From the NCBI GenBank assembly GCA_049583675.1, contig JBAUWG010000584.1, positions 1 to 44,271 on the forward strand: a stretch of DNA of 44,271 bases, read 5' to 3'. The notes beneath the pieces were generated by a model that worked only from the letters and a program-made list of their open reading frames with translations, had not been told where the DNA came from and did not search any database. A program made the position numbers and the translations under genes. Below are positions 9,097 through 42,927 of the stretch, piece after piece (positions within the stretch are counted from its first letter, which is position 1; the number at the start of each line of letters is the position of its first letter). Origin of the DNA: Desulfobacterales bacterium (GTDB taxonomy: Bacteria; Desulfobacterota; Desulfobacteria; Desulfobacterales; UBA11574).

Positions 9097-9347
9097 AAAG
9101 TTTGACAGAAAATAGAAAATGGGAATTAGCAAATAGTTAACTGCAAATGAACGCTAATATTATTATTTGTGTTCATCCGCGGTTCTCTTTATCCACTTGC
9201 CTAATTCTGACCGGAGAAGCAAGATCTTGGCAGTCGGATTAACTGGGAAAGAATCACCGATGGCAAAAGGGACATTCCGTTGTAAATCAAAAAATTGTTG
9301 TGGAATTTATTGTCCTTGTGAACCTAAAGCAAAAAAGGAGGTGAAGC

Positions 9348-10268: not shown

Positions 10269-10301
10269 AAGGCAGAAATAGAAAAGAGAAAATAGGAAGG
10301 G

Positions 10302-10323
10302 AAAAAGAGGTTTACCCTCTTTT
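10302..10323 (+). terminator. Rho-independent terminator after the formyltransferase-like gene
   Basis: AAAAAGAGG (10302-10310), loop TTTA, CCTCTTTTT (10315-10323). This is a 9-bp stem running into a T tract. Confidence 0.6.
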
Positions 10324-10343
10324 TGTGGTGTGGAACCCAATGA

Positions 10344-10382
10344 AAAGGCCTTTGAAAAACGGTGAATTTTTCAAAGGCCTTT
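10344..10382. terminator. Bidirectional terminator hairpin between convergent genes (fmt-like and fdhA)
   Basis: AAAGGCCTTTGAAAAA (10344-10359), loop CGGTGAA, TTTTTCAAAGGCCTTT (10367-10382). This is a perfect 16-bp stem. It is flanked by an A-run and ATTTTTTA, so it has a U-tract on both strands. Confidence 0.8.
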
Positions 10383-10408
10383 ATTTTTTAATGGGCTGCT
10401 TGCTGAAA

Positions 10409-12445: not shown

Positions 12446-12543
12446 TCGTATCGCTCCTTATCGCGTTGAAAATTTTGGATTGGATATTGACGCCTTTTTA
12501 TGCCACGGCAAAAAAGGACCTCACCGCTTCAATCGTTGAGTCT

Positions 12544-13341: not shown

Positions 13342-13342
13342 A

Positions 13343-13825
13343 TCATCCTCCCTCTATGCTCGCAGTATCTTGCGCTGCTTCGCTTAAACTCATTACGGCG
13401 GACATGTCAAATTCGCCGGACAGAGGGCTGGGGCCTAATGATTTTATTTTATTTGTAAAATGGGTGACAACCTGCACAAATTTTTGGGCTTCTGCCGAAG
13501 ATATCCAGTCCAAATGCAGCCGGCCTTCCAATCCCATAAAGGCCAATAGTTCCTGCAGAAAGGTCATCCGTTTGATCGTCATGTAATTACCATACAGGTA
13601 ATGGCAGTCGCCGACATGTCACCCGCCCACCAGGACTCCGTCGGCACCGCTTTGAAAGGCTCTTAAAATGTGATGCGGCGACACCGTGGCGGAACACATG
13701 ACCCGAATAGGACGAATATTGGGCGGGTATGCCAGTCGACTGACACCCGCCAGGTCCGCCGCGCCGTAGGCACACCAGTTACACATAAATGCGATGATTT
13801 TCGGCTCGAATTTATCCTCGTTCAC
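13343..13825 (-). CDS. mvhD: MvhD/FlpD-type (methyl-viologen-reducing hydrogenase delta subunit-like) protein, selenocysteine-containing
   Basis: Track ORFs 13619..13825 and 13343..13582 join in frame through TGA 13621-13619. The joined sequence reads ...[19 protein letters not shown]...[58 protein letters not shown]... It matches the MvhD GCHxGDCHY core with Sec in place of the first Cys. Total length is 160 codons. Confidence 0.85.
13586..13602 (-). promoter_or_regulatory. SECIS-like hairpin for the mvhD UGA
   Basis: The minus-strand RNA is AUUACC-UGUAU-GGUAAU, a perfect 6-bp stem starting 16 nt after the UGA. It is short and AU-rich, so weaker than the other two. Confidence 0.45.
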
Positions 13826-13846
13826 ACTTTTCTCCTTTCCAACGGA

Positions 13847-25299: not shown

Positions 25300-25315
25300 A
25301 GCAATCCTTGTGCCA
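25300..25315 (-). promoter_or_regulatory. Sigma-54 (-24/-12) promoter reading towards the zinc-ribbon gene, dksA and hup
   Basis: The reverse complement of 25298-25318 is TTTTGGCACAAGGATTGCTAT. This gives TGGCAC-N5-TTGCT with exact consensus spacing, about 220 nt upstream of the zinc-ribbon start. Confidence 0.7.
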
Positions 25316-28633: not shown

Positions 28634-28999
28634 CTACTCTCGAACGATGAATCTTGATTTGACGCTTTCGGCGCCGAAGAACGCTTTTGTAAATCTTTCC
28701 GCATGCTTTTCATCATAGGCTTTACATGAGAATATATTGATATAGACGGTTCTTTTATATTCTGAAAAGTGGCCGACAATGGAACTGGTTTCAATGAATT
28801 GAACCAGTGAATATCCTTTGGTATGGAGTTGATTTTCACCGAAATACGGCGTAATCGGATCTCCATAGGGTTTCATCCCCAGCAGGTCACATAGTTCTGT
28901 TGCATACCTGCGGATCATTTTTTCGTTTGAAATTGCTGTTGGATCACATTCATAAAGATCCAAAATCAGCTCCCATCCAAATTTGGTTTCAGAGGACAT
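28634..28999 (-). CDS. S-adenosylmethionine-decarboxylase-fold (SpeH/AdoMetDC class 1) paralogue of unknown substrate
   Basis: 121 aa. GWELILDLYECD...GYSLVQFIETSSIVGHFSEYKRTVYINIFSCK is collinear with the speH self-cleavage region (ILQESHMSIHTWPEYEYAAIDIFVCG), but the ES|H site is replaced by ETSS. Confidence 0.65.
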   Translation of the reverse strand: MSSETKFGWELILDLYECDPTAISNEKMIRRYATELCDLLGMKPYGDPITPYFGENQLHTKGYSLVQFIETSSIVGHFSEYKRTVYINIFSCKAYDEKHAERFTKAFFGAESVKSRFIVRE

Positions 29000-29034
29000 G
29001 CCGAAAATTCCTTCAATTAAGTTGAGAAATTCTT

Positions 29035-29889
29035 TTATTTTAAACGGTTTTTAAAAAATTGAGGAAGATGAAACGATCCGATATGGATGCCGGGGTTGTA
29101 GTAAGTCGTTTCAAGGGAAACTTCGTTGACTTTGGTTTGAATCTCATCAGAACGGATGTTTTTGGGGTTAATGCTCTCCGAGCAGAAAACCGATGAAAAG
29201 AGGCCTCCGATATACGTTGGAACACAATAGACATAAAAAGCAACATGGGTAAAAATGTTCCTCAAAACCTTATGAGCCTGTTTCTGCTCATCGGCTTGTA
29301 TCTGAAGTGAACCGGTCTGCCGGACCATGATGCCGTTGGAATTCAACCGCTGGTGAACCTGAACATAAAACTTTTCAGAAAAAAGAACTTGGGCGGGGCC
29401 TATGGGATCCGGAGAATCAACGATAACCACGTCGTAGGCATCATCTGTTTTTTCAACATATCCGGCCCCGTCGGCAAAGATAATTTTCGCTCGTTTGTCT
29501 TCAAAGGCGCCGTTATTGATGGAAGGAAGATATTTTTTGGAAAAATCGACCACGTTCGAATCGATTTCAACCATGACCGTTTTTTCCACCTGAGGATGGC
29601 GCAGAACTTCGCGAAGAATACCACCGTCCCCACCGCCGATGATCAGCACCTGTTTGGGATCCGGATGGGCCAGCATCGGAACATGGACCATCATTTCATG
29701 ATAAAAAAACTCGTCTTTTTCAGTGGTCTGTACGATTCCGTCCAAAAGCAACATCTTGCCGTACTCATGGGTATCCACCAGTTGAATGTGTTGAAACTCG
29801 CCATTTTCCTCATAAAGGACCCTTTTTATGCGATAGCGCGTTTCAATATTTTTCCATTTTTCTTTCACCCATTGAACGTGTTGCGTCAT
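29035..29889 (-). CDS. speE: Spermidine synthase (polyamine aminopropyltransferase)
   Basis: 284 aa with motifs LDGIVQTTEKDEFFYHEMM, VLIIGGGDGGILREVLRH, VEIDSNVV and VDSPDPIGPA. The ATGA overlap with speH suggests coupling. Confidence 0.9.
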   Translation of the reverse strand: MTQHVQWVKEKWKNIETRYRIKRVLYEENGEFQHIQLVDTHEYGKMLLLDGIVQTTEKDEFFYHEMMVHVPMLAHPDPKQVLIIGGGDGGILREVLRHPQVEKTVMVEIDSNVVDFSKKYLPSINNGAFEDKRAKIIFADGAGYVEKTDDAYDVVIVDSPDPIGPAQVLFSEKFYVQVHQRLNSNGIMVRQTGSLQIQADEQKQAHKVLRNIFTHVAFYVYCVPTYIGGLFSSVFCSESINPKNIRSDEIQTKVNEVSLETTYYNPGIHIGSFHLPQFFKNRLK

Positions 29890-30299
29890 CCCAGGATCCC
29901 CCGCTTGATTTCCTGAATTTCGGTTCTTTTAGGCTGGAATCCTTGCTCCAGTATCGGAAGGGCTAGGTATGGATCAATCGTGCCGCATACAAAAATATCG
30001 ATAGCCGCATATTCATATTCCGGCCAAGTGTGTATGCTCATATGGGATTCTTGTAAAATGGCTACGCCTGAAATGCCGCCGTTGGGTGAGAAGGCATGAA
30101 GATCAATGCCGAGCAAGGTTGCCCCGCACGTTTCAATGGCTTTGATAAGGATTTCCCGGATACGTGACGAATCGGTCAAGTGCCTGGCATGCCAAAGTTC
30201 TATCAAAAGGTGAATGCCGGCATACTTCAGCGCCCCGTCACGTATGCAAAACTCCTTTATGTCTTCCGTCTTTTTTGCAGCTGTCAGAATTTTCATCAA
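29886..30299 (-). CDS. speH: S-adenosylmethionine decarboxylase proenzyme (pyruvoyl, class 1b)
   Basis: 137 aa. GIHLLIELW...GVAILQESHMSIHTWPEYEYAAIDIFVCG contains the canonical E-S self-cleavage site and the HTWPE motif. Confidence 0.88.
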   Translation of the reverse strand: MMKILTAAKKTEDIKEFCIRDGALKYAGIHLLIELWHARHLTDSSRIREILIKAIETCGATLLGIDLHAFSPNGGISGVAILQESHMSIHTWPEYEYAAIDIFVCGTIDPYLALPILEQGFQPKRTEIQEIKRGILG

Positions 30300-30468: not shown

Positions 30469-32250
30469 TTAAAATCCCTTCGATGGTAAGGGTTCGCCTT
30501 TTTCATCCCATCCGCGTTCTTTATAATATTCGGATAGAAGCTGTTTCATTTGATCTTCGGTAATAATTTTATTGGTTTCAGGCAGCGCTTCTCTAAAAAA
30601 TCTTCGTGGGATGCAATCATCTTCTGGCGTGAGACCTTCTCTTAAATTAAACCGTCTGATGTTGTCAAGAATGTCACCGGCAATGGTTCGCATTCCTTGA
30701 GCGGTGAGATCCATGCCGGTTGTTGTTCGAATTATGGCGGAAAGTTCATCCCACTGGTAAAGATCCCGATAAAAGCGGCACAAAATCAGGGCATCAAAAA
30801 TCGTCAGACGGTCTTCCCATTCTGTAAACATTTTGGCCTTTCCGTCGATCCGGTCAGGTTCGATGAGCCCGGCCAGTTCGGGTTTGTAGAATGTGGCGCG
30901 AAGGTGGCAGGCGCCTCTGGCTGATGTCCCATAAGCCAGACCCATTCCTTTCAGCACCCGAGGGTCATAGCCTGCCGGCTCGAGGCCTTTGACATGAATG
31001 GCTTGATCTTCCATGTTCCAGGCTTTGGCCGCATATTTGATTCCTCTGGCCAGTACATCGCCGATACCGCGACGCCGGGCGGTATCATCTAAAAGCCTTG
31101 CCACGGCATCGACCTGGCCATAGTCCAGCGTCTCATCGATTTTTCCTTGTCGGGAGGCTTCGATGGCCAATGCCGCCAGATTGCCTCCGCTGATCGTATC
31201 CATGCCGAGGCGATCGCAGATATCATTTAAATAAGCGATTTCCTCGATGCTGTCGATTTCACAAAGACCGCCGAATGCGTAAATAGTTTCATATTCCGGC
31301 CCTTCGACCTTAAGTCCTTTGTGCCTTCCATTTTTGACGGTGGAGAGTCGACCGCAGGCCATAAAACATTTCAGGCAGGCATGGGGTTGGACATCGCATC
31401 TTTCATGAAGGGCCCGGGCATTGATTTTATCGGCATGTTCAAATTGCCCCTTTTTCCAGTACCGGGTGGGGAATCCGCCGGCCTTGTTCATGATATCCAC
31501 CAACATGGGCGTACCCATGCTTTTGTATGCTTTTACGCCGGCATCGTCTTTTGACCGCTGTGCTATGGATTTGGCGAAAGTTTTCATCCCATCGACGTCG
31601 GCAAATTCCTTTTTCCGGTTTCCCCAAAAGGCAAAGGCTTTGATATTTTTTGAACCTGCGACCGCCCCAACACCGGTTCGGCCCGCACTGCGCCAGTAAT
31701 CGTTTTCGAGGACCGCAAAACTGACCTTGTTTTCGCCGGCCGGTCCGATACAGACCACCCCGCACCTTTTCGCGTCCGGACGATGTTGTTTGATCCACGC
31801 CTTGACGCGGTCTTCTGTTTCATATGTGTCTTTTCCCCAGAGATCATCAGCCGGATGGAACCACACTTTTTCTTCTCCAATCTCTATCCAGACAGGGCTT
31901 GGGGCGGCACCGCCGATCATGACGGCATCGAATCCCGTAGCACTCATGTGGTCGGCGACGGTTCCTCCTGAATAAGATTCGGAGAAAAAGCCGGTCTGGG
32001 GAGACTTGGTGAATACCCCGTGACGGCAGGAGCCCCAGATCGCGCTCCCGGTCAACGGACCGATGGCAAATATCAAATGATTTTCAGGGCTCAACGGATC
32101 CACGCCCGGCGGATTGTGGCGAAGCAACAGATCGGTGGCGAGCCCTCTTCCGCCCAGATTGGTTTTCAAAATAAAGTCATCTATTGGCGCGATGCGATAC
32201 ATTTCTTTATTCAAATTAATTTTTAGAATTTTTCCATAAAATCCGTACAT
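30469..32250 (-). CDS. Aldehyde:ferredoxin oxidoreductase (tungstopterin AOR family)
   Basis: Track ORF 30469..32265. The preferred start is ATG 32250 (MYGFYGKILKINL), preceded by AGAGGA. AOR N-terminal domain: GGRGLATDLL, GPLTGS. Catalytic domain: motifs including CLKCFMACGR, EGPEYETIYAFGGLC and GACHLRA. Confidence 0.9.
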   Translation of the reverse strand: MYGFYGKILKINLNKEMYRIAPIDDFILKTNLGGRGLATDLLLRHNPPGVDPLSPENHLIFAIGPLTGSAIWGSCRHGVFTKSPQTGFFSESYSGGTVADHMSATGFDAVMIGGAAPSPVWIEIGEEKVWFHPADDLWGKDTYETEDRVKAWIKQHRPDAKRCGVVCIGPAGENKVSFAVLENDYWRSAGRTGVGAVAGSKNIKAFAFWGNRKKEFADVDGMKTFAKSIAQRSKDDAGVKAYKSMGTPMLVDIMNKAGGFPTRYWKKGQFEHADKINARALHERCDVQPHACLKCFMACGRLSTVKNGRHKGLKVEGPEYETIYAFGGLCEIDSIEEIAYLNDICDRLGMDTISGGNLAALAIEASRQGKIDETLDYGQVDAVARLLDDTARRRGIGDVLARGIKYAAKAWNMEDQAIHVKGLEPAGYDPRVLKGMGLAYGTSARGACHLRATFYKPELAGLIEPDRIDGKAKMFTEWEDRLTIFDALILCRFYRDLYQWDELSAIIRTTTGMDLTAQGMRTIAGDILDNIRRFNLREGLTPEDDCIPRRFFREALPETNKIITEDQMKQLLSEYYKERGWDEKGEPLPSKGF

Positions 32251-32543
32251 GCTCATCCTCTTCATTTTTTAAACAAAAATCCTGGCCAAGGGGCCGTTCC
32301 AGAAGAAATTTGCTTTACTGAGTGTTCGTTTTAGAAAATCAGAAATAGGAATTGGAAAATAGATAACTGCGTATGGACGTAAATATAATTAGAAGATGAG
32401 GAGGTTAGGAAGTTAGAAGTTTGGAAATCACGTAAATGTGCTGACCTTCTAATCTTCTTGCTTTCTTATTTTTCGAAATATTTGTGTTCATTCGTATTCA
32501 TCCATGCTTTCCTCTTTCCTTTTTGCTCTTTTCTATTAGGAAC

Positions 32544-33260
32544 TTACAGCCCCAGATAAGCGGTTTTGATATGGGGATCCTGCAGCAATTTGTCGGCCGG
32601 GCCTTCCATGGCAATACGGCCGTGTTCCAGTACATACCCGCGATCGCTCAAACTCAAAGAATGTTTTACATCCTGTTCCACCAGCAGTACAGTGGTGCCT
32701 TGATCGGCAATTTTTCGAACCGTCCGGAAAATATCTTTGATTAAGATGGGAGCGAGACCTAAGGATGGCTCATCGAGCATCAACAACTTCGGACGGGCCA
32801 TAAGCCCACGACCTATGGCAACCATCTGCTGTTCTCCTCCGGACAAGGTCATGGCCAACTGGGATTCTCTTTCTTTGAGCTTTGGTAATAAAGAATAGAC
32901 ATCTTCCATGGTTGCCGCCATATTTTTTTCGGCACGGCTGTTGTAGGCCCCGATGATCAAGTTGTCTTTCACGGACATTAAGGTAAAGAGCCGTCGTCCC
33001 TCAGGTACCTGAATAATGCCGCGCTCAACGATTTCTTCGGGAGGAGCGGTTTGAATGGGAGCATTTTCAAACACAATTTTCCCTTTTGACGGATTTATCA
33101 ATCCGGAAATGGTTTTTAAAAGCGTAGATTTACCGGCGCCGTTGCCGCCGATGATGCTGACCACTTCACCTTCTATGACTTCAAGAGAAAGATCAAAAAT
33201 AACCTGAACATCTCCATAAAACACATCGATATTTTTCACCTCAAGAAACGACATATTCAT
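32544..33260 (-). CDS. livF: Branched-chain-type ABC transporter ATP-binding protein (LivF family)
   Basis: 238 aa with Walker A GGNGAGKSTLL, signature LSGGEQQM and Walker B LLMLDEPS. Confidence 0.9.
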   Translation of the reverse strand: MNMSFLEVKNIDVFYGDVQVIFDLSLEVIEGEVVSIIGGNGAGKSTLLKTISGLINPSKGKIVFENAPIQTAPPEEIVERGIIQVPEGRRLFTLMSVKDNLIIGAYNSRAEKNMAATMEDVYSLLPKLKERESQLAMTLSGGEQQMVAIGRGLMARPKLLMLDEPSLGLAPILIKDIFRTVRKIADQGTTVLLVEQDVKHSLSLSDRGYVLEHGRIAMEGPADKLLQDPHIKTAYLGL

Positions 33261-33966
33261 CTCCCAGATAGGCTTTGATCACATTTTCGTTCGAGGCAAC
33301 CTCTTGAGGAGAACCTTCGGCGATTTTTTTCCCAAAATGAATCACCACGATCCGGTCCGATAGGGCCATAATGGCACGCATGATATGTTCAATCACGAAA
33401 ATAGTGATTCCCTGATCGCGAAGATTTTTAATAATTTGAACCATTTCATCCACTTCGGCGGGTCTTAGGCCGGCCATCACCTCATCGAAAAGCAATAATT
33501 TGGGTTCGGTGGCCAGGGCACGGGCAATTTCAAGACGTTTGAGTTCGGCAATGGTCAGGTTCCCGGCTCTATCATCTTTTTTGTTCTCAAAGGAAAGCAG
33601 TTTTAAGACTTCCAGGGCTTTTTCTTCAGCGGCAGCCGCCTTATCCCTGGTGGCAAAACTTCCCACCATCACATTGTACAGCACACTTTTGGATCTGAAG
33701 GGCTTGACGATCTGAAAGGTCCGGGCCAGACCGTTTTTACAAAGGTTCCAGGGCTTAGCCCCGTTAATTTTATTGCCGGCGAAAAAGATGTCGCCTTTTG
33801 TCGGGGTATAGACCCCTGCAATGCAATTGAAAGCCGTGGATTTTCCGGCACCGTTGGGACCGATCATGCCCAGGATCTCTCCTTTTTTTATGAAGAGGCT
33901 CAAGGCGTCCACCGCTCTCAGTCCACCGAAATCCTTTACAAGATCGTTGATTTCAAGAATATTCAT
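33241..33966 (-). CDS. livG: Branched-chain-type ABC transporter ATP-binding protein (LivG family)
   Basis: Track ORF 33241..34026. The preferred start is ATG 33966 (MNILEINDLVKDFGG), overlapping the livM stop by 14 nt. Motifs: Walker A GPNGAGKSTAFN, Walker B LLLFDEVMAG, and the LivG-type C-terminal YLG. Confidence 0.9.
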   Translation of the reverse strand: MNILEINDLVKDFGGLRAVDALSLFIKKGEILGMIGPNGAGKSTAFNCIAGVYTPTKGDIFFAGNKINGAKPWNLCKNGLARTFQIVKPFRSKSVLYNVMVGSFATRDKAAAAEEKALEVLKLLSFENKKDDRAGNLTIAELKRLEIARALATEPKLLLFDEVMAGLRPAEVDEMVQIIKNLRDQGITIFVIEHIMRAIMALSDRIVVIHFGKKIAEGSPQEVASNENVIKAYLGDEYVVS

Positions 33967-34978
33967 GTCCGGCCTTTTCTTGGGGAGCTTGTTGGAGAAT
34001 TTTGTCAAGAATCTTATTGTAAGCATTCAGCAGCGGTTCCTGCAAACCACGGGGTTGAAAGATCATGACCAGGACAAGAACCATACCGAAAATGATCAGA
34101 TGAAGCCCCGGCAGGGTTGAACCGAAGTAAATCCGTGAAAAATCGCTCACCGGCCGAAGAAGCAGGGCGCCCAGAATAGGTCCGGCTATGGAGCCTCTTC
34201 CCCCGATGAGTGCGATAAAGGCGATTTCAAAGGAAAGATCCAAGGACATGACGCTTTTTGGATAGATGTAGAGAGTAAATTGTGCGTAAAAGGTCCCGGC
34301 CAGCGCCGTTAAAAAGGAGCTCATGGCCATGGCGATGAGCTTGGCCCGCGCGACATTGACCCCCAGCGACATGGCGGCTTCGGGTTCCTCCCCCCCTGCA
34401 TTCAAAAAATAACCCAGTTTGGAGCGTGAAATAAAATAGGTGAAAGCGATAACACCGATGAGCATCACCAGAATAATATAATAGTACGGCTCTTTTGTGT
34501 TAAACATGAAGTTGACGAATCCAGTATGCGTGGGAGGGATCTCCAACCCCCTGGGCCCTCGAATATTTAATGGGCCGAGGGTTTCGATGTTTTCGAACAT
34601 GACGCGAATCCCTTCGCCGAAAGCAATGGTCGCCAAAGCAAAATAGGCCCCGCGCATTTTAAATGTGGGCAGACCGATGAGGATCCCCACAATGCCGGCT
34701 AAAAATCCGCCGACGATCATGCCTAGCCAGGGACTGATACCGTACTGAAGGGACAGGACAGTGGAGGTATAGGCACCGATACCGACAAATGCGGAATGAC
34801 CCAGCGGAAGAACGCCGGCAAAACCGCCCACCAGATTCCAGCTCGTCGTCAGGTAGGCATAGAAAAAGAGCAAACAGATAATATGGAGATACGTCGGACT
34901 TCGAAGTACCAGCGGTATCCCAAAGGCAACAACCCCCAGTAAAATAAGCGCCGATGTGTTTATCGTTTTACGCGTCAT
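33953..34978 (-). CDS. livM: Branched-chain-type ABC transporter permease (LivM family)
   Basis: 341-aa polytopic membrane protein sharing LivM motifs with 2557..3522. Confidence 0.88.
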   Translation of the reverse strand: MTRKTINTSALILLGVVAFGIPLVLRSPTYLHIICLLFFYAYLTTSWNLVGGFAGVLPLGHSAFVGIGAYTSTVLSLQYGISPWLGMIVGGFLAGIVGILIGLPTFKMRGAYFALATIAFGEGIRVMFENIETLGPLNIRGPRGLEIPPTHTGFVNFMFNTKEPYYYIILVMLIGVIAFTYFISRSKLGYFLNAGGEEPEAAMSLGVNVARAKLIAMAMSSFLTALAGTFYAQFTLYIYPKSVMSLDLSFEIAFIALIGGRGSIAGPILGALLLRPVSDFSRIYFGSTLPGLHLIIFGMVLVLVMIFQPRGLQEPLLNAYNKILDKILQQAPQEKAGHEYS

Positions 34979-35003
34979 ACCCTTTCCTGTTCAATTAGAA
35001 GCC

Positions 35004-35081
35004 CTATCAAAAAAGTCTTTTCGTCCGATATCGGCGTTGAGCCCTCGTCTCAATCTCGACCGAAAATCCTAATTTTGAGAT
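35004..35081. repeat. Short (78-nt) copy of an inverted-repeat (MITE-like) element, in the livH-livM intercistronic spacer
   Basis: CTATCAAAAAAGTCTTTTCGTCCGATATCGGCGTTGAGCCCTCGTCTCAA|TCTCGACCGAAAATCCTAATTTTGAGAT is near-identical to both ends of 42294..42477. The termini are imperfect inverted repeats. The flanks GAAGCC and GGCTTC extend the pairing. Confidence 0.75.
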
Positions 35082-35097
35082 GGCTTCCAGTTTATGC

Positions 35098-35985
35098 CTA
35101 CCAGTCGTATTTTACACCAAACAGTCCTGAAGGCTTAACGAAGAGGAACACCAGAAAAAGACCGTACACAATTGCTTCCGCCCAAGTGGCGGTCATAAAC
35201 ATGGGCGCGACCGATTCAATCAGGCCAATGATAATTCCTCCGATAATGGCGCCGCCGATACTGCCCAATCCCCCGAGCACCACAATGATGAATCCCTTGA
35301 TATCGAAGAGCACACCGACGGAAGGGAAAATATTATAAAAAGGTACCAGGGTGACTGCGGAGATACCGACAATCGCCGTACCGATGCCAAAAGCGATGTT
35401 GTAGATTTTAAACTGATTAATGCCCATGAGGCTGGCGGCTTCACGGTCAAGACTCGTGGCGCGGATGGCCCTGCCCGTCCGTGTTTTTTGCAAAAACCAG
35501 TAAACGGCTATCGCAGTGATCACCGCGGTGACAAACCCCCAGAGTTTTGGGACGGATATCAACATATTCCCGATGTCCAGCATTTTTCCTCTCAGCGGGT
35601 TGTTTTGAATGCCGCGGTATTGCGGGCCGAATATCAGTAATGTCAGGTTGTCCAGGATGTACCAGATGCCGGTGGTGACGATAATGACCGTAATCGGCTC
35701 ACGAACATCCTTTTCAGCCTTGAATATGGGTTTGATGACGATGTCCTGAAGATAATACCCGAAAAAGTACATGACCGGAACGACGATAATCAGCGAAAGA
35801 TATGGATGCACCCCTGTATATATGAGGACCCAATACGCGACATACATACTCACCATGATCAGGGATCCGTGTGCAAAGTTAATCACCTTGAGGACACCGA
35901 AAATCACGGTCAGGCCCAAAGCGGTCAGTCCGTAAATCGATCCCATACAAATACCGTTAAGTATACTTTCGAAAATATAATTCAT
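35098..35985 (-). CDS. livH: Branched-chain-type ABC transporter permease (LivH family)
   Basis: 295-aa polytopic membrane protein. MNYIFESILNGICMGSIYGLTALGLTVIFG is a typical LivH N-terminus. Confidence 0.88.
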   Translation of the reverse strand: MNYIFESILNGICMGSIYGLTALGLTVIFGVLKVINFAHGSLIMVSMYVAYWVLIYTGVHPYLSLIIVVPVMYFFGYYLQDIVIKPIFKAEKDVREPITVIIVTTGIWYILDNLTLLIFGPQYRGIQNNPLRGKMLDIGNMLISVPKLWGFVTAVITAIAVYWFLQKTRTGRAIRATSLDREAASLMGINQFKIYNIAFGIGTAIVGISAVTLVPFYNIFPSVGVLFDIKGFIIVVLGGLGSIGGAIIGGIIIGLIESVAPMFMTATWAEAIVYGLFLVFLFVKPSGLFGVKYDW

Positions 35986-36066
35986 ATCCGCGTCTCGATT
36001 ACAAGCTATGGAGAAGAGAGCGCCGTTTGGCCAACGACGCTCTCATTTGAATAAACATGGCGTCGA

Positions 36067-37326
36067 TTATTTGTTGGGCATTGGAAATACCGGTGTATAT
36101 CCGGCGCGCCGCGCGCTTTTGGGCCATACCGTAATTCGTTCCAGACCTTTGCCGATATCGTTAATCTGGACCATGACCAAAGACGCATTCTTGTTCTGGC
36201 CGTTCTTGTCAAACTCAACCGAATTATAGCCGACGATCATGCCGGGCCCGCTGGTCAAGTGTGTGGTGGCCAATGCTTCTCGAATTTTGGCCGGATCTAA
36301 AGAGCCGGCCCGTTCCAAGGCATCTTTGAGGACATACATGGCCAGATAAGCGTCCACGGATTCACCGGCCAGGTTGTATCCGTATTTGGCTTTAAATTTG
36401 GCATTGGCTTCTTTGGCGCCCGGTTTATTGACATCGGTTTCCCATTCGACAATATCGAAGAGATACCGGGCATTCTTTCCCGTTGCCTTTAAAAAGGAAG
36501 GATCCGCATGCCCGCCGCCGCTGGCGATAACAGCCTTGAGCTTTACCTTGTACGATGCCAACGTATTGGTTAAAAGGATCGCATCAGCGGCATTGGATAC
36601 CAGCATCAACACATCGGGCCTGGCGCGTCGAATCTTTTGAACCACCGGACTCAGATCCGTGGCTGTGGAAGGATACGGTTCGTCCAGGACAACCTTATAT
36701 CCGCCTTTCTTCGCCAGGATTTTCCATTGGCTCGCAAATCCTTGGCCCCAATCGCCGTTTTCATAAACAAAGGCCAGTTTTTTCACCGGTGTTTTAAACT
36801 CTTTTTCCATATCTTTGAGAAATGCAAACTGGTCGCGGGTCCACCAACTGTCTTTTGCTGCAATTCTGAATACATTTTTGAAACCCTGCTCCGTGATTTT
36901 ATCGGCAACGGAAACCGGAACGATGAACGGAATGCCGTAACGTTCCGCCACCGCCGTTGTCGGATAGGTCACCGCAGAGTTCCAGCAGCCGGTCAATACA
37001 TTTACTTTTTCAGTGTTGATCAAACGTTCGGCTTCGGCCACGCCTCTTTCCGGCTTGGATTCGGAGTCAGCGTAAATCATCTCGAGTTTTGCGCCGCCCA
37101 ATGACTTGATGCCGCCGGCGGCATTGATCTCTTCAACCGCCATTTCACGGGCCTGTTTTCCCTGTTGGCCCACCGATGCCGAGGGTCCTGACAGCGGGAT
37201 AATGTTCCCGACCTTGACCACGTTTTCCGCCGCTGCCGGTGCGGGCAACACGAAAAAGGCGGCCACAAGCGCCAGGGTTGAAAAAAACACGGTTAATTTC
37301 CCCATAAATTTACTGTCAACTTTCAT
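36067..37326 (-). CDS. ABC transporter substrate-binding protein (Leu/Ile/Val-binding family; ligand unknown)
   Basis: 419 aa with a signal peptide (LTVFFSTLALVAAFFVLPAPAAA), followed by VKVGNIIPLSGPSASVG and EINAAGGIKSLGGAKLE family motifs. Confidence 0.85.
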   Translation of the reverse strand: MKVDSKFMGKLTVFFSTLALVAAFFVLPAPAAAENVVKVGNIIPLSGPSASVGQQGKQAREMAVEEINAAGGIKSLGGAKLEMIYADSESKPERGVAEAERLINTEKVNVLTGCWNSAVTYPTTAVAERYGIPFIVPVSVADKITEQGFKNVFRIAAKDSWWTRDQFAFLKDMEKEFKTPVKKLAFVYENGDWGQGFASQWKILAKKGGYKVVLDEPYPSTATDLSPVVQKIRRARPDVLMLVSNAADAILLTNTLASYKVKLKAVIASGGGHADPSFLKATGKNARYLFDIVEWETDVNKPGAKEANAKFKAKYGYNLAGESVDAYLAMYVLKDALERAGSLDPAKIREALATTHLTSGPGMIVGYNSVEFDKNGQNKNASLVMVQINDIGKGLERITVWPKSARRAGYTPVFPMPNK

Positions 37327-37378
37327 TGATTGCTCCTCCTTTTGTTCATAGTGGTTAATTTATTTTCGAGCATAGACG

Positions 37379-37693
37379 TTAAATAAGGCTGCCGTAGGAA
37401 AAGAACGTCATATCATCAGGGATCCCGGTATTTAGAACGTCCTGCATTATATGATCTGCTCTGTTTGGATCAACTCTTACCACCAGCAAAGATAATCCGA
37501 GGTGTTTGTCGTAGTGAATTTTGGAATCAAAGATTCCCAGATTTAACTGCGCGATGCCATGAATGATGTTATGAAATACATCCTTATCGACGGATGAAAA
37601 GGTCTTTTCAAAGATCAGGTAACTGTAAGCAGGGTCCAGTGACCGTTTGATCTTCTCAAAAACCGGGGAATGAGGCTTGGATGCTTTTTTCAT
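37379..37693 (-). CDS. Hypothetical protein (104 aa), co-operonic with gabT and the ABC transporter
   Basis: Clean ORF whose start lies 1 nt after the gabT stop. I recognise no family. Confidence 0.5.
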   Translation of the reverse strand: MKKASKPHSPVFEKIKRSLDPAYSYLIFEKTFSSVDKDVFHNIIHGIAQLNLGIFDSKIHYDKHLGLSLLVVRVDPNRADHIMQDVLNTGIPDDMTFFSYGSLI

Positions 37694-37694
37694 T

Positions 37695-39002
37695 TTATTT
37701 TGAAATAAACCCGAGGCCTTCTTCTAAAATGGCCAGGCCCCTATTCAATTGTTCGTCTGTGATAACCAGCGGCATTAGGGTTCGAATAACGTTCCCGAAG
37801 TTGCCGCAGGACAATAAGATCAACCCCTTGTCATGACAGAATTTGACCAGCGCCTTGGCTTTATCTGCTGCGGGTTCTTTGGTCTGCCGGTCTTTCACCA
37901 GTTCCATGGCGAGCATGGGGCCTAATCCGCGGACTTCTCCGATAAATTCGTATTCACGTTGAAAGGCATCAAAATGTTTCCGCACCTTTTTGCCCAGATC
38001 TTTAGACGTTTGAAGCAGATTTTCCTGTTCAAAAATTTCCATGACCGCAAGACCCGCTGCGCAGGCGACCGGGTTGCCCCCGTAAGTACCGCCCAACCCA
38101 AACGGGTGAACCGTTTCCATAATTTCCTTTTTCCCCACCACTGCGCTCAGCGGCATTCCAGCCGCAAGACTTTTGGCGACCGTCACAAGGTCAGGCGCCA
38201 GATTCCAGTGTTCTATGGCAAACATCTTGCCGGTGCGTCCCATGCCGGTTTGAATTTCGTCGGCGATAAACAGAATTCCGTAGTCGCTGCATATGTTGAC
38301 CAGTTTAGGAAAATACTCCGGCGGCGGCGTGATAAAGCCGCCTTCGCCCATTATCGGTTCCGCGATAACGGCCGCTGTTTTTTCAGCAGCGACATGACTG
38401 ATAAAAAACTCTTTGAGATGATCCGCGCATACGACATCACAGCCGGGATACGCCAGGCCGAACGGGCAGCGATAACAATAGGCATAGGGCATCCGGTAAA
38501 TTTCAGGGGCAAATGGGCCGAATCCGAACTTATACGGCTTGACCTTGCTGGTGAGGGTCATGGTTAAGAGTGTGCGGCCGTGGTAGCCGTTTTCAAAGGC
38601 AATGACGGCAGGTCTTTCGGTATAATATCGAGCGATTTTGACGGCATTTTCAACCGCTTCAGCCCCGCTGTTGATAAAAAGGGCTCTTTTCTCAAAAGAT
38701 CCCGGCGTTGCATTGCATAACTTCCGGGCCAGTTCCACCGGTTGTGCATACGGCATCACCATAAAACATGTATGGGTGAATTTTTCCGCCTGATCCTTGA
38801 TGGCTTTAATCACCTTGGGATGAGAATGCCCGACATTCATCACACCGATACCGCCGGCAAAGTCGATGAACTCTTTGCCCTCCACATCCCGGATCAGCGC
38901 GCCCTTGGCTGATTCTACGTAGCTGGGTGTTATACTCCCGTGGCCGGAGGGTATATATTGGGCCCGTATTTTCCCCAGATTTTCATTGGTAACATGCGCC
39001 AT
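37695..39002 (-). CDS. gabT: Class-III PLP aminotransferase, 4-aminobutyrate:2-oxoglutarate transaminase-like
   Basis: 435 aa. Motifs: DFAGGIGVMNVGHSHP, NSGAEAVENAVKIAR, ADEIQTGMGRTGKMFA, TVAKSLAAGMPLSA (PLP-binding Lys) and GGTYGGNPVACAA. It is collinear with GabT-type omega-transaminases. Confidence 0.85.
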   Translation of the reverse strand: MAHVTNENLGKIRAQYIPSGHGSITPSYVESAKGALIRDVEGKEFIDFAGGIGVMNVGHSHPKVIKAIKDQAEKFTHTCFMVMPYAQPVELARKLCNATPGSFEKRALFINSGAEAVENAVKIARYYTERPAVIAFENGYHGRTLLTMTLTSKVKPYKFGFGPFAPEIYRMPYAYCYRCPFGLAYPGCDVVCADHLKEFFISHVAAEKTAAVIAEPIMGEGGFITPPPEYFPKLVNICSDYGILFIADEIQTGMGRTGKMFAIEHWNLAPDLVTVAKSLAAGMPLSAVVGKKEIMETVHPFGLGGTYGGNPVACAAGLAVMEIFEQENLLQTSKDLGKKVRKHFDAFQREYEFIGEVRGLGPMLAMELVKDRQTKEPAADKAKALVKFCHDKGLILLSCGNFGNVIRTLMPLVITDEQLNRGLAILEEGLGFISK

Positions 39003-39076
39003 TAGAATACTCCTTGCTTGATGGTTGCGTAAGCAGTTTGTTTTATTGAACGGTATTTCTATTTTTCTCGATTCAA

Positions 39077-39092
39077 AGCAATATCTGTTCCA
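39077..39092 (-). promoter_or_regulatory. Sigma-54 (-24/-12) promoter for the gabT-ABC operon
   Basis: The reverse complement of 39075-39095 is CATTGGAACAGATATTGCTTT. This gives TGGAAC-N5-TTGCT with GG and GC at consensus spacing, about 75 nt upstream of the gabT ATG. Confidence 0.65.
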
Positions 39093-39169
39093 ATGGTTGC
39101 ATGCATAAAGACAATATAAGAGATTCGAATGGGTTGAGCGTTTTGATGCAGAGATATGGTTTGACGGGA

Positions 39170-39189
39170 TTGATTCATTTATGAATCAA
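39170..39189. promoter_or_regulatory. Perfect inverted repeat, candidate enhancer (UAS) for the adjacent sigma-54 activator
   Basis: TTGATTCAT-TT-ATGAATCAA has 9-bp perfect arms and lies 80-100 nt upstream of the -24 element. A related GATTCA-TTAT-TGAATC repeat sits at 39297-39312, and AATGATGCA(A/T)AAT occurs twice (about 39191 and 39228). Confidence 0.45.
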
Positions 39190-39302
39190 AAAATGATGCA
39201 AAATCGCGCCGGGTAAGCCATTGTGGAATGATGCATAATTGAATCATAATGCATTTATTTTAAATTCATTCATAACAGAGAATTAAACACTTTTTTGATT
39301 CA

Positions 39303-41060
39303 TTATTGAATCGTCTTTCGGTATAGACCATGTTTTTTAAGTTTGCGAACGATGCTGGGTTGGCTGATTTTCAGGAACCGCGCCATTTCTCTGGTGGTCC
39401 GGCAGCATCTCATGGCATGTTGCAAAATATCCTTTTCCAGGTTCAGCATCTGACCGGTGAGCCCTTTTTCCTGGGATGAATCATCCACTGAAGTCGTAAA
39501 GGCGCACATGCCTGATGGAAGACCCTGATAGATAACCTCATCAATAAAATGAGTTTCGCTCATCAAGACCGCTTTTTTAATCATGTTTTTCAATTCACGA
39601 ACATTTCCGGGAAACGGATAAGCTTGCAATAATTTAAGGGCATCCGGAGAGATCCGCCGATTTAACCCGTATGTTTTTCCATATTCTTTCATATAGAAAC
39701 TCACCAGTTCAAAAATATCGTCAATTCTTTCCCGAAGCGGTGGAATTCGTATGGTAAAGGTATTGAGCCGAAAAAAGAGATCCCTTCGGAACCGTTTTTC
39801 TTGAACCAGACCTTCTATGTCACGATTTGTAGCGGCAATTATCGTGCAATCAATTTTCTTTGCTTTAAGGCCTCCCAGACGCATAACCTCATGATCATCC
39901 AAGTATTTCAATAATTTTGCCTGGAGAGAATGCGGTAAATCCCCGATCTCGTCGAGAAAAAGGGTTCCTTCGTGGGCCAGTTCAAAAAGGCCGGCTTTTC
40001 CTTCCTGCCGGGCGCCGGTAAATGCACCTTTTTCATAGCCGAAAAGTTCGGCTTCTAAAAGGTATTCCGGTAAGGTGGCACAGTTGATCTGAATGAAAGG
40101 TTTCTTGTTTCGATGGCTGTTCTTATGTATGAATTTGGCCAAAAGCCCTTTGCCGGTTCCGGATTCTCCCAGAATCAATATATCCGATGCTGAAAGATGG
40201 GCCAGCTTTAAGGCGAGGTGCAGAACTTGGCGCATCTTTTTATCTTCAGCGACAATCTCCTGATCTTTTAATTCCAAAAGGCTGAGTTCAGCCAGTTTAT
40301 CCTTATATTTCTCCGTCACCATTCGGGAATTTTCAAGCTGTTTCTGGATGGCGTTCAATTGGGTCATATCCCGCTCATTGACCACCACAAGAAAGATATG
40401 ACCATCATCATCAAAAGCGGGTGTGCCGGTGGCCAGCAAAAGCTTTTCCGTTCGTTTTATTTTTTGGATGACACTGACCTGGCGTTTGGTTTCAAGCACT
40501 TCCAAGGTTACCGAACGATCAAACAGACCGCCTTCTACAAGATCGATCACGTTTTTGCCGATGATATCCGTTGCATGAATCCCATTCAATTTTTCAGAGG
40601 CTTCGTTGATGTCAATCACTTTGCCTTGTCCGTCGCAGACCCATATTCCATCATGGGACGCTTTAAAAATGGTTTTCAGCTGCTGATTCAGGTAACTGCT
40701 CGACGCCAGCTTGTCCGGCGAAATTTTAAATTGCTTCATATCCTGGAAATTACAAACGGTCCCCAATATTTTCTTTCCCCGGCGAATCAGGGTAATATTG
40801 AGCACCATATCGAGCTTTTCTCCGATAACATGGTGCCCCCATTTGGGCGTGCCGGTTTTCAAGCATTCTAAGACCTGTGGACCGGTGATAGGGAGCAGTT
40901 CTGAAATATAAACGCCGTTGTGCTTTTTGGCACTGCAACCCAGTATTTTTTCAGCCTGAGGATTGATATAGGCAATGGTTCCCGACACATCCGTTGCAAT
41001 GATGCCGTTTGACGTTGCATTGAAAATCAGGTCATATGTTATACTTTTGTCCATGGTCAT
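39303..41060 (-). CDS. Sigma-54-dependent transcriptional activator with two PAS-like sensor domains
   Basis: 585 aa. The N-terminal PAS-like segments include IFNATSNGIIATDVSGTIAYINPQAEKILG and IFKASHDGIWVCDGQGKVIDINEASEKLNG. The AAA+ core has ILILGESGTGKGLLA, GAFTGA, TLFLDEIGD and RRDLFFRLN. The C-terminal HTH is ARFLKISQPSIVRKLKKHGL. Confidence 0.9.
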   Translation of the reverse strand: MTMDKSITYDLIFNATSNGIIATDVSGTIAYINPQAEKILGCSAKKHNGVYISELLPITGPQVLECLKTGTPKWGHHVIGEKLDMVLNITLIRRGKKILGTVCNFQDMKQFKISPDKLASSSYLNQQLKTIFKASHDGIWVCDGQGKVIDINEASEKLNGIHATDIIGKNVIDLVEGGLFDRSVTLEVLETKRQVSVIQKIKRTEKLLLATGTPAFDDDGHIFLVVVNERDMTQLNAIQKQLENSRMVTEKYKDKLAELSLLELKDQEIVAEDKKMRQVLHLALKLAHLSASDILILGESGTGKGLLAKFIHKNSHRNKKPFIQINCATLPEYLLEAELFGYEKGAFTGARQEGKAGLFELAHEGTLFLDEIGDLPHSLQAKLLKYLDDHEVMRLGGLKAKKIDCTIIAATNRDIEGLVQEKRFRRDLFFRLNTFTIRIPPLRERIDDIFELVSFYMKEYGKTYGLNRRISPDALKLLQAYPFPGNVRELKNMIKKAVLMSETHFIDEVIYQGLPSGMCAFTTSVDDSSQEKGLTGQMLNLEKDILQHAMRCCRTTREMARFLKISQPSIVRKLKKHGLYRKTIQ

Positions 41061-41195
41061 ACATCTTAAATGATATTTGAATGGTTTTACACGTCAATAT
41101 TTTATAATATTTTCCGGTTCCCGGGTCAAGGCCGGGCTTGACCTTTACTATACATGTGAATATTATCTAATTCACTTATGTCGAAAGGGGAAAAG

Positions 41196-41663
41196 ATGCG
41201 GAAACAGAAAAATTCCAGAGGCTGTTTTCTGTGCGGACTTGAGAATGAATTATCGCTGAAAATGAAATGGTACGAAGATCAACAGACGCGGCAGGTGCGG
41301 TCCACGGTGACGGTTCCGGATCATTTCAACGGCTATCCGGGAGTGGTTCACGGGGGGATTGTTTCGGCAATACTGGATGAAACATCCGGACGCGCCGTCA
41401 TGTTGAAAAACGGCGAGGATGCATTAATGGTGGCGCTGAAGCTGGAAGTAACGTTTCGCCGTCCGACCCCGACCAATACGTCGCTTACGGTTACCGGCTG
41501 GGTGATCAAGCAGTCCTCAAGCCGGGCTCAGGTCGCCGCAGAGATCCGGCTTCCCGATGGAACCCTTACCGCCGAATGCAAAGCCGTCGTCGTTCGTCCG
41601 CCCCGGGAAATACTTGACAAATGGGAAAATGAAAAACCTTATTGGAAGGTTTATGATGATTGA
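41196..41663 (+). CDS. PaaI-family hotdog-fold thioesterase
   Basis: Track ORF 41178..41663. ATG 41196 has the better RBS (AAGGGGA). Motifs: NGYPGVVHGGIVSAILDETSGRA and a C-terminal beta-sheet region. An N-terminal CFLCG motif is present. Confidence 0.75.
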   Translation: MRKQKNSRGCFLCGLENELSLKMKWYEDQQTRQVRSTVTVPDHFNGYPGVVHGGIVSAILDETSGRAVMLKNGEDALMVALKLEVTFRRPTPTNTSLTVTGWVIKQSSSRAQVAAEIRLPDGTLTAECKAVVVRPPREILDKWENEKPYWKVYDD

Positions 41664-41756
41664 ACAATTCACTTTTAATATATTATTTTGGATGGAATCG
41701 GCTAAAGGCGAAAATGTTTGTGTCGGGTTTTATCTAACGTGTTAAGGAGGCTTTAA

Positions 41757-42239
41757 ATGCAAATTTTGGTTCTTTATTTTTCTAAGGGCGGCAACACCAA
41801 AAAACTGGCTGAAGCGATCTTTAAAGGGATTGAAAGTGTCGAAGGCGTTAACGGCATATTAAAACATACCGATGATGTCACCAAAGAGGATTTTGTTTCA
41901 TCAAGCGGAGTGATTGCCGGTTCCCCAGTCTATTTCGGGGTCATGGCGGCCCAGCTCAAAAAGATTTTCGACGAATTTGTGGGCATTCGGAAAAAAATGG
42001 AGGGCAAGGTCGGTGCTGCCTTTGCAACATCCGCAGATCCTTCGGGCGGAAAGGAAACCACAATGATGTCCATTATCCAAGTCATGTTGATTTACGGGAT
42101 GGTGATTGTGGGGGATCCCCTGTCCGCTACCGGACATTTTGGGACGGCCTGTGTCGGTGCGCCGGACAGCGGCAATCTTGAAAATGGTATGAAACTGGGA
42201 CAGAGGGTGGCGAAACTGGCAAAAAAACTCGGAGATTAA
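41757..42239 (+). CDS. Flavodoxin-fold FMN protein (WrbA / NAD(P)H-dependent oxidoreductase-like)
   Basis: 160 aa with RBS AAGGAGG. MQILVLYFSKGGNTKKLAEAI is a flavodoxin-type phosphate-binding loop, and GSPVYFGVMAAQLK is also present. Confidence 0.8.
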   Translation: MQILVLYFSKGGNTKKLAEAIFKGIESVEGVNGILKHTDDVTKEDFVSSSGVIAGSPVYFGVMAAQLKKIFDEFVGIRKKMEGKVGAAFATSADPSGGKETTMMSIIQVMLIYGMVIVGDPLSATGHFGTACVGAPDSGNLENGMKLGQRVAKLAKKLGD

Positions 42240-42293
42240 GAAAAACGGCATTTTATAATGATACCGGGTTCCGAACCTGAATATCACGAGAAG

Positions 42294-42477
42294 CTATCTC
42301 AAAAAAGTCTTTTCGTCCGATGTCGGCGTTGAGCCCTCGTCTCAAGTCCTCGACATACTTGAGTATGCGTGTCGAAGATCCCGCTAACAGACGGGGCGAG
42401 TTGATCCTCAGCCTTGCGTTTTTGTCCCGACGATCTTGGGCGGGAGATCTCGACCGAAAATCCTAATTTTAAGATAG
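42294..42477. repeat. Long (184-nt) copy of the inverted-repeat (MITE-like) element
   Basis: Its ends match 35004..35081. The left end is CTATCTCAAAAAAGTCTTTTCGTCCGATGTCGGCGTTGAGCCCTCGTCTCAA and the right end is TCTCGACCGAAAATCCTAATTTTAAGATAG. An extra 102-nt core (42346-42447) contains internal hairpins such as TCGACA...TGTCGA and CCCG...CGGG. The terminal inverted repeat reads CTATCT.AAAA....TTTTCG.TCGA on both arms. Confidence 0.75.
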
Positions 42478-42531
42478 ATTTTAAAGGCGCTGTCAAGCGC
42501 AGGCCGAAATATATTGTTTGAGGAAAATAAA

Positions 42532-42927
42532 ATGAAAGGAATTTTTCTGAGATGGTTGATTCTGACATTTTCAATCATGGCGACATCATATATGATTGAT
42601 GGGATTCAGGTCACCGGCTTTTTATCCGCATTTTTTGCCGCCGCTATTTTGGGAATACTGAATGCTTTTTTTCGACCGATCCTGTTCATATTGACCCTCC
42701 CGGTCAATATCCTGAGTCTGGGGCTTTTTACCTTTGTGATCAACGCTGTGATGCTGATGATGGTTTCCGCCGTGATAACCGGTTTTAAAGTTCACGGATT
42801 CTGGTCTGCCGTGTTTGGATCGCTTTTAATCAGTTTGGTCAGTTGGCTTCTAACATCTTTTATCAGTGAACGGGGAACGGTTCAGTATATTGATTTAAAA
42901 CATGTCGGACGCAACCGATGGGAATGA
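42532..42927 (+). CDS. DUF360 / phage-holin-4-2 family small membrane protein
   Basis: Track ORF 42514..42927. The preferred start is ATG 42532 (MKGIFLRWLIL), after GAGGA. It has four TM segments and the sequence FFAAAILGILNAFFRPILFILTLPVNILSLGLFTFVINA, typical of the family. Confidence 0.75.
   Translation: MKGIFLRWLILTFSIMATSYMIDGIQVTGFLSAFFAAAILGILNAFFRPILFILTLPVNILSLGLFTFVINAVMLMMVSAVITGFKVHGFWSAVFGSLLISLVSWLLTSFISERGTVQYIDLKHVGRNRWE

Follow-up and report, generated by a model that had tools for sequence, protein, structure and literature searches.

The window analysed here, a stretch of 44,271 nt (contig JBAUWG010000584.1 of assembly GCA_049583675.1), belongs to a metagenome-assembled genome (3.7 Mb, 86% complete) of a Desulfobacterales bacterium of the UBA11574 lineage, an uncultured relative of sulfate reducers. 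On this one contig lies a module, with all of its genes on the (-) strand, in which a gene for a sigma-54 activator and an intergenic region of 300 nt are followed by gabT, an open reading frame (ORF) for a protein of 104 amino acids (orf104), the genes for a binding protein and the LivH, LivM, LivG and LivF components of an ATP-binding cassette (ABC) importer, a spacer, and a gene for an aldehyde:ferredoxin oxidoreductase (AOR). We suggest that this module probably serves the catabolism of an omega-amino acid, and that its AOR would act in the role of the succinate-semialdehyde dehydrogenase (SSADH) GabD. Its features are as follows.

39303..41060, (-): sigma-54 activator gene, 585 aa; PAS, PAS, Sigma54_activat, AAA lid and HTH domains (Pfam, NCBIfam)
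39313-39296, 39246-39229 and 39188-39171, (-): three candidate enhancer palindromes, TGATTCA-N4-TGAATCA-like, read from the sequence
39077..39092, (-): predicted sigma-54 -24/-12 promoter, TGGAAC-AGATA-TTGCT, 75 nt 5' of the gabT ATG
37695..39002, (-): gabT, 435 aa; TIGR00700
37379..37693, (-): orf104, beginning 1 nt past the gabT stop codon
36067..37326, (-): binding protein gene; Peripla_BP_6 (6.7e-68), signal peptide
35098..35985, (-): livH, ABC permease (Pfam, NCBIfam)
33953..34978, (-): livM, ABC permease (Pfam, NCBIfam)
33241..34026, (-): livG, ABC ATPase (Pfam, NCBIfam)
32544..33260, (-): livF, ABC ATPase (Pfam, NCBIfam)
32266..32543, (-): livF-AOR spacer, largely a dispersed intergenic repeat
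30469..32265, (-): AOR gene, 598 aa; AFOR_N and AFOR_C; probable true start at 32250

Every gene named in the initial annotation is present on the (-) strand, including the PAS-PAS-AAA+ activator gene upstream of gabT (41060-39303). The short gaps of 1-55 nt that had been described for the genes after gabT do not hold at every junction: 81 nt separate the binding protein gene from livH and 119 nt separate livH from livM; the latter gap holds a repeat element of 78 nt (35004-35081). The AOR gene does lie 3' of livF on the same strand, at a distance of 293 nt rather than 278 nt when counted from its conserved ATG at 32250. The window lacks an NAD-dependent SSADH, as had been stated, and none of the Aldedh matches of the genome falls on this contig.

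The transaminase and the aldehyde:ferredoxin oxidoreductase

The gabT gene encodes a predicted class-III 4-aminobutyrate:2-oxoglutarate transaminase. Its TIGR00700 score of 574.7 bits lies above the curated equivalog threshold for 4-aminobutyrate transaminases (506.65 bits), and it matches the E. coli GabT structure 1SF2 with an E-value of 6.6e-124. In the alignment with 1SF2, the residues Ile50, Gly111, Tyr138, His139, Arg141, Glu211, Asp239, Gln242, Lys268, Thr297 and Arg398 are kept, and only two changes occur in the aligned motifs (Ser112 to Ala, Val241 to Ile). Among the retained residues are Lys268, which we take to be the lysine that binds pyridoxal phosphate, and Arg141 and Arg398, presumably the arginines that hold the carboxylate of the substrate. 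Transaminases of the GabT type yield an aldehyde, such as succinate semialdehyde.

AOR enzymes oxidise aldehydes to acids with ferredoxin. The protein encoded at the 3' end of the module scores above the cut-off for both AFOR_N (232.9 bits) and AFOR_C (395.8 bits), and its matches in the Protein Data Bank (PDB) include 9MQX (7.8e-116) and the Pyrococcus furiosus AOR 1AOR (5.7e-107). In the 1AOR alignment, it keeps the four [4Fe-4S] cysteines (Cys288, Cys291, Cys295 and Cys494), Glu313 and His448. Both D-x-x-G-x-(D/C) pterin motifs are kept as well; in the second one, Gly492 is replaced by Ile while Asp489 and Cys494 are retained. The ATG at 32250 (MYGFYGK) aligns with residue 1 of the solved AORs and with the starts of the relatives, and is most likely the conserved start of the protein. 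No genes for partner subunits of the AorA/AorC type flank the AOR gene; this tungsten-family enzyme therefore looks stand-alone and ferredoxin-dependent. A phylogenetic tree places the gab-linked AORs in a single clade (SH-aLRT 95) that is separate from two distant AOR paralogues of this genome, and the gabT-adjacent type is nested within the livF-adjacent type. The same genome codes for a further AOR of this clade that is 57% identical to the one studied here (L138, G000:C37, positions 9346-14888), with ORFs of 164, 317 and 715 aa behind it.

Conservation of the gene cluster among relatives

With one genome taken per species, a scan retrieved 80 loci whose binding protein is an orthologue of the one in the window, at 78-96% identity. 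Represented among them are Desulfobacteraceae, Desulfosarcina, Desulfococcus, Desulfamplus, Desulfocapsaceae (Desulfopila, Desulforhopalus), Desulfobulbus and Syntrophobacteraceae; the loci are organised as follows.

Full order gabT-binding protein-livHMGF-AOR: 26/80 loci
AOR after livF, upstream end cut off: 4/80 loci
Transporter under a kinase/response-regulator pair, with a separate activator-gabT-AOR operon alongside: 8/80 loci
gabT-gabD, no AOR: 2/80 loci
gabT-transporter without AOR: 5/80 loci
Truncated locus: 7/80 loci
Transporter alone (within 10 kb): 28/80 loci

Where gabT is present and the downstream region is resolved, the AOR gene takes the operon position in 34 of 41 loci, directly after either livF or gabT. 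In the eight loci with a separate operon, the gap between gabT and the AOR gene measures 104-150 nt in seven and 517 nt in L125; the cultured Desulfopila aestuarii DSM 18488 (L085) has such an activator-gabT-AOR operon. Three genera of the family keep the arrangement activator-gabT-orf104-binding protein-livHMGF-AOR; the genes 3' of the AOR gene vary among them (speD-speE, a glycosyltransferase gene and others), and the AOR gene stays. Rearranged forms, found through the family of the 104-aa protein, comprise gabT-orf104-AOR-like; gabT-orf104-AOR with a different Liv system, whose binding protein is 27% identical, placed before the AOR gene; and gabT-transporter-AOR remnant-orf104-glutamate dehydrogenase-AOR. 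The link between gabT and the AOR gene thus persists through at least four gene orders in Desulfobacterales, Desulfocapsaceae and Syntrophobacteraceae.

The position of the AOR gene can be compared with that of gabD. The Aldedh genes beside gabT in Desulfamplus magnetovallimortis (L107) and in L098 exceed the SSADH cut-off of TIGR01780 (702-728 bits versus 646 bits). So does the Aldedh encoded after the AOR gene in L065, with a score in the same range, and several loci carry an AOR gene followed by gabD. Since a bona fide gabD sits in this place in orthologous loci, the AOR gene occupies or shares the position of gabD.

Some further observations concern the surroundings of these clusters. In a related metagenome cluster (L131, 5577-5996; L132, 1140-5019), an AOR remnant of 68-139 aa after livF is followed by the orf104 homologue, a glutamate dehydrogenase gene and a full-length AOR gene. 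In L066, L085, L095, L098 and L107 (Desulfocapsaceae, Desulfamplus), the genes for the same binding protein and transporter adjoin those for a protein of about 725 aa, taken for a sensor kinase, and for an NtrC-type response regulator, which replace the PAS activator that the window has beside the transporter; this pair lies upstream on the same strand in four loci and is divergent in L107. Within the window, speD, speE and a second gene with the AdoMetDC fold (28634-30299) are found 3' of the AOR gene in the closest relatives only and stand outside the conserved module. At the other end (41178-42927), divergent genes for a thioesterase, a flavodoxin-like protein and a holin-4-family membrane protein adjoin the activator gene throughout the family.

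Sigma-54 activator, promoter and enhancer sites

The features looked for in a sigma-54 regulon were found: an AAA+ domain with the GAFTGA motif and a C-terminal HTH domain in the activator, rpoN in the genome, and a correctly spaced GG-N10-GC element that is conserved in orthologous loci. GAFTGA is invariant across 15 homologues of the activator, and activator homologues of 48-91% identity adjoin gabT in related loci. The TGGAAC-N5-TTGCT promoter that the initial annotation had placed ahead of gabT is confirmed at 39092-39077. Matches to a loose -24/-12 pattern occur in the window at chance level (12 versus 11.45 expected), and the weight of this promoter hence comes from its position and conservation. 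When the element TGG-N9-TGCW was sought in the 350 nt upstream of each gene, gabT proved to have one in 29 of 47 loci and the AOR gene in 1 of 39; the chance rate, estimated from the background of the window itself, is about 0.05 per upstream region. Most related loci with this activator have 2-3 copies of the candidate enhancer palindrome ahead of gabT, with at most two mismatches. Elsewhere in the window, a perfect TGGCAC-N5-TTGCT string is located at 25300-25315 (-), downstream of the gene for a sigma-54 activator of the response-regulator type (27040-25646).

The livF-AOR spacer and transcription of the cluster

Between livF and the AOR gene, the window has 278-293 nt, versus 12-130 nt in most relatives. 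This spacer aligns with those of the relatives at its ends only, and its body has 23 partial copies on other contigs of the genome (70-85% identity). The extra length is, as judged from these alignments, an insertion of a dispersed repeat. A scan listed no terminator in the spacer, and its hairpin is no better than those of shuffled sequences (z -0.02). A TGGAAC...TTGGC string was dismissed as a sigma-54 promoter for the AOR gene, as it has the wrong spacing and no TGC.

Four sediment metatranscriptome runs from one study, in which 50-63% of the sampled words of the stretch are present, yielded contigs that cover gabT through the AOR gene and extend into speD. One RNA contig with a depth of 133 bridges livF (515 nt) and the AOR gene (115 nt); it stems from another strain, and its spacer measures 34 nt versus 288 nt in the window. 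Such a bridge is what co-transcription predicts. Depth in the four runs was 0-3 over 39175-41300, the region of the activator gene, versus 10-850 over the operon, a difference that is not used as evidence, nor to argue that the libraries lack DNA; likewise, the end of one RNA contig at 39053, followed by adapter sequence and situated 24 nt downstream of the -12 element, is not used to assign a transcription start. The 78-nt repeat between livH and livM differs among strains, and at 35008-35053 the RNA-library contigs of the four runs break off and pass into dissimilar sequence.

The binding protein and the Liv-type importer

The importer is complete and of the HAAT/Liv type; it consists of the binding protein, two BPD_transp_2 permeases and two ATPases, one of which has a BCA_ABC_TP_C tail. 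The best PDB match of the binding protein is SAR11_0655 (8WCH; 1.7e-56), which binds L-pyroglutamate at <5 nM (PMC11485210). Its third-best match (1e-27) is Atu2422 of Agrobacterium (3IP5), a protein that binds GABA, proline and alanine (PMC3656012). The E-value for E. coli LivJ is 8.5e-17, and the score of 104.9 bits against the LivJ equivalog model PRK15404 falls far short of the cut-off of 477 bits. Both Atu2422 and SAR11_0655 belong to the same fold family as the binding protein (Peripla_BP_6), and both are nearer to it than LivJ is.

The small protein encoded by orf104

The 104-aa protein has no match in sequence searches of Pfam, NCBIfam or the PDB. It has 45 close homologues, and a profile search of 1.8 billion representatives returned 193 clusters; the family members are all stand-alone proteins of about 100-125 residues. 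The family occurs in 22 of 250 genomes of the order, whereas a sample of 400 other genomes from across the phylum contained it in a single one. On these comparisons, orf104 qualifies as a real gene. An AlphaFold (AF2) model (pLDDT 80) shows a beta-alpha-beta-beta-alpha-beta arrangement with an extra N-terminal helix. The nearest folds are ACT-domain models and the regulatory subunit of aspartate kinase (TM-score 0.59-0.65); a Foldseek search against the PDB returned only generic ferredoxin-like folds (E about 4e-4). The protein matches no Pfam ACT model, and the likeness is one of fold alone. In terms of its predicted structure, it belongs to an unnamed family of stand-alone ACT-like small proteins; it shares its fold with stand-alone regulatory domains of the ACT/RAM type and differs from them by the absence of a sequence match and by the additional N-terminal helix.

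In 18 further loci of this family, a homologue of the PAS activator is present in 14, an AOR gene in 11 and gabT in 9, and in some loci the orf104 homologue is the first gene after the activator gene, within operons for quite different enzymes. When residues 1-262 of the activator were co-folded with the 104-aa protein, the ipSAE score was 0.51 (0.46-0.51 among runs), while the highest value among three controls was 0.00. Agreement among the runs extends to at least 71% of the contacts, and the pLDDT of the partner is at least 74. The ipSAE mark is passed by 58 of 80 solved complexes and by 2 of 110 mismatched pairs, and values of 0.60 or less comprise only 7 of the 80 solved complexes together with both passing mismatched pairs. 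The co-fold thus weakly supports a contact of the small protein with the PAS region of the activator.

Homologues of orf104 are also present in other operons for amines or amino acids (L034, G047:C27, 10157-18058; L035, G038:C16, 741-15518), with the forms livHMGF-M20 amidohydrolase-orf-PNPOx-like-AOR-SnoaL and PAS activator-orf-APC permease-metallophosphoesterase-SDR-Liv system-glycyl radical enzyme. In L037 (G038:C63, 12977-17685), from a related genome of the order, a pylS-like gene, a pylB-like (radical SAM) gene, a pylC-like gene and pylD precede two small ORFs, of which one belongs to the 104-aa family, as well as genes for succinyl-CoA ligase and an Aldedh.

Proposed pathway and alternative explanations

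We propose that the module is a catabolic omega-amino-acid operon, most likely for GABA, in which the AOR oxidises the semialdehyde in the role of GabD, and would put the probability of this reading at roughly 60%. The induced PAS-PAS activator would bind the TGATTCA-N4-TGAATCA sites and open the sigma-54 promoter at 39092-39077, and a single transcript would then cover gabT, orf104 and the five genes of the transporter, and read-through would extend it into the AOR gene. The Liv-type ABC system would import the amino acid, and GabT would move its amino group to 2-oxoglutarate, which would leave succinate (or glutarate) semialdehyde. The AOR would then oxidise this semialdehyde to the dicarboxylate and reduce ferredoxin; it would take on the task of the NAD(P)-dependent GabD and provide low-potential electrons. 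The data show the identities of the genes, the intact key residues, the conservation of promoter and enhancer sites, the conserved linkage and one RNA contig across livF and the AOR gene; the substrate, the AOR reaction, its electron acceptor and its metal are inferred. Import, deamination and oxidation by the AOR, as envisioned in the initial annotation, are supported by synteny, the equivalence to gabD, the promoters and the RNA bridge. Its wording that the AOR acts instead of a dehydrogenase is better replaced by "in place of or alongside", because some clusters carry an AOR gene followed by gabD and the genome has an SSADH-like Aldedh elsewhere.

Several findings weigh against this proposal. 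The nearest characterised binding protein takes L-pyroglutamate and not GABA (PMC11485210). A different contig encodes an SSADH-like Aldedh, whose 562 bits with PRK09406 do not reach the cut-off of that model, although an SSADH that reaches the grade of TIGR01780 was not found in this 86%-complete genome. Some relatives hold AOR and gabD genes together, so that the AOR need not be the sole or main oxidiser of the semialdehyde, and the gab clade of AORs is not exclusive to gab clusters, since this genome encodes the 57%-identical paralogue in unrelated surroundings. In addition, 278-293 nt separate livF from the AOR gene in this genome; no RNA contig at 95% identity crosses the window's own spacer, which is not taken as evidence; and contigs from RNA libraries, which may include DNA, do not prove a single transcript. 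The support as a whole is that of comparative genomics.

The same mechanism might serve another omega-amine, such as 5-aminovalerate, beta-alanine or a related compound, with the AOR acting on glutarate semialdehyde, malonate semialdehyde or another aldehyde. To our knowledge, neither GabT and DavT nor GabD and DavD can be told apart by sequence, and 5-aminovalerate remains a candidate because the same enzyme families also act on it. Members of the AOR clade are moreover found beside other class-III aminotransferases, which share only 32-37% identity with the GabT of the module, and the binding protein is closer to the pyroglutamate binder than to Atu2422. GABA is favoured by the score of GabT above the GABA-transaminase equivalog cut-off, by the retained equivalents of Arg141 and Arg398 for the terminal carboxylate, by gabD genes of the SSADH subfamily in orthologous loci, and by the glutamate dehydrogenase gene in one related cluster; we regard a different omega-amine as rather unlikely. 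Still less probable, in our view, is an AOR that is a mere neighbour with its own promoter and serves general aldehyde scavenging or acid reduction outside the gab pathway. The long spacer with its weak hairpin and T run, the five gabT-transporter loci without AOR, and the same-clade paralogue elsewhere in the genome would fit such independence, but the spacer holds a dispersed-repeat insertion and is only 12-130 nt long among most relatives, shuffled sequences give hairpins that are as good, gabT linkage persists through the different gene orders, 38 of 39 loci have no sigma-54 element ahead of the AOR gene, and an RNA contig bridges livF and the AOR gene.

We consider it similarly improbable that the AOR is auxiliary or conditional, used for instance when tungsten is plentiful or aldehyde builds up, with an NAD(P)-dependent Aldedh encoded elsewhere carrying the main flux. 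Such a division of labour would accord with the presence of AOR and gabD genes in one cluster, as in L065, with the SSADH-like Aldedh of this genome, and with near-cut-off SSADH-like genes (about 600 bits) in many family members. Against it stand the AOR gene as the only aldehyde-oxidising gene of the operon and a search that found no SSADH-like gene at E <=1e-150 here or in the three relatives G005, G010 and G014 (orf104 87-94% identical; completeness 86-96%). Within the genus, 4 of the 10 genomes that have the cluster also have an SSADH-like gene, as do 5 of the 6 that lack the cluster; this sample is too small and too related to be used.

A bolder extension concerns the 104-aa protein. It may conceivably represent a new class of accessory to sigma-54 activators, an ACT-like sensor seated on the PAS region that tunes the induction of amine-catabolic operons (e.g., to the level of semialdehyde or glutamate), and which together with the AOR would make up an undescribed ferredoxin-yielding GABA pathway with feedback in anaerobes; we regard this idea as speculative and rather doubtful.

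If the AOR does oxidise succinate semialdehyde, strict anaerobes would run the GABA/5-aminovalerate pathway with a step that reduces ferredoxin and not NAD(P). The breakdown of amino acids and polyamines in sediments would then have a different energy yield, the pathway would depend on tungsten or molybdenum, and one clade of the large and mostly unassigned bacterial AOR family would gain a physiological substrate. The cluster would also provide a function-linked context for an unnamed family of small proteins and for a highly conserved Liv-type binding protein.

Comparison with known systems

Searches of the literature that combined AOR with succinate semialdehyde, 4-aminobutyrate or GABA (full text), or that concerned GABA use by sulfate reducers, returned nothing relevant, and dicarboxylate semialdehydes are not documented as a physiological AOR substrate in the papers searched. 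Control of gabT by sigma-54 and a PAS-containing activator is established in Bacillus thuringiensis, as is the GabT plus GabD pathway in general, and Liv-type binding of GABA has a precedent. New are the AOR step and its association with an importer of the ABC type and a small ACT-like protein. The pairing of gabT with an AOR gene is common in the relatives.

GabT followed by an NAD(P)-dependent GabD is the textbook pathway. Like the E. coli gabDTP and Pseudomonas davDT systems, the module starts with a class-III transaminase, and the expected products are succinate or glutarate; unlike them, it would assign the second step to a ferredoxin-linked AOR, and it relies on ABC uptake instead of the GabP permease and on sigma-54 control. 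Characterised AORs are broad-range oxidisers of aldehydes from amino-acid breakdown. The enzyme studied here has the two domains, the FeS cysteines, Glu313/His448 and the pterin motifs in common with the AORs of P. furiosus (1AOR), Aromatoleum aromaticum (8C0Z) and Thermoanaerobacter sp. X514 (PMC10816221), but differs from characterised AORs by its linkage to an omega-transaminase and an importer and by the lack of adjoining AorA/AorC-type partner genes.

That a Liv-family importer may serve an omega-amino acid, which the initial annotation had regarded as potentially of interest, is supported as a reading, and it has a precedent in the Liv-type GABA binder Atu2422. Unlike this general amino-acid binder, the protein described here keeps 78-96% identity among several families of the Desulfobacterota and is tied to gabT. 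The closest counterpart in layout is the gab cluster of Bacillus thuringiensis, in which GabR, a sigma-54 activator with PAS, AAA+ and HTH domains, is encoded together with gabT and gabD, and GABA and succinic semialdehyde act as inducers (PMC4279683). Both clusters have a gene for a PAS-containing sigma-54 activator adjoining gabT, a -24/-12 promoter before gabT and repeat sites upstream; the Desulfobacterales module differs from the Bacillus cluster by the two PAS domains of its activator, its Liv-type importer, its 104-aa ACT-like protein, and an AOR gene in place of gabD.

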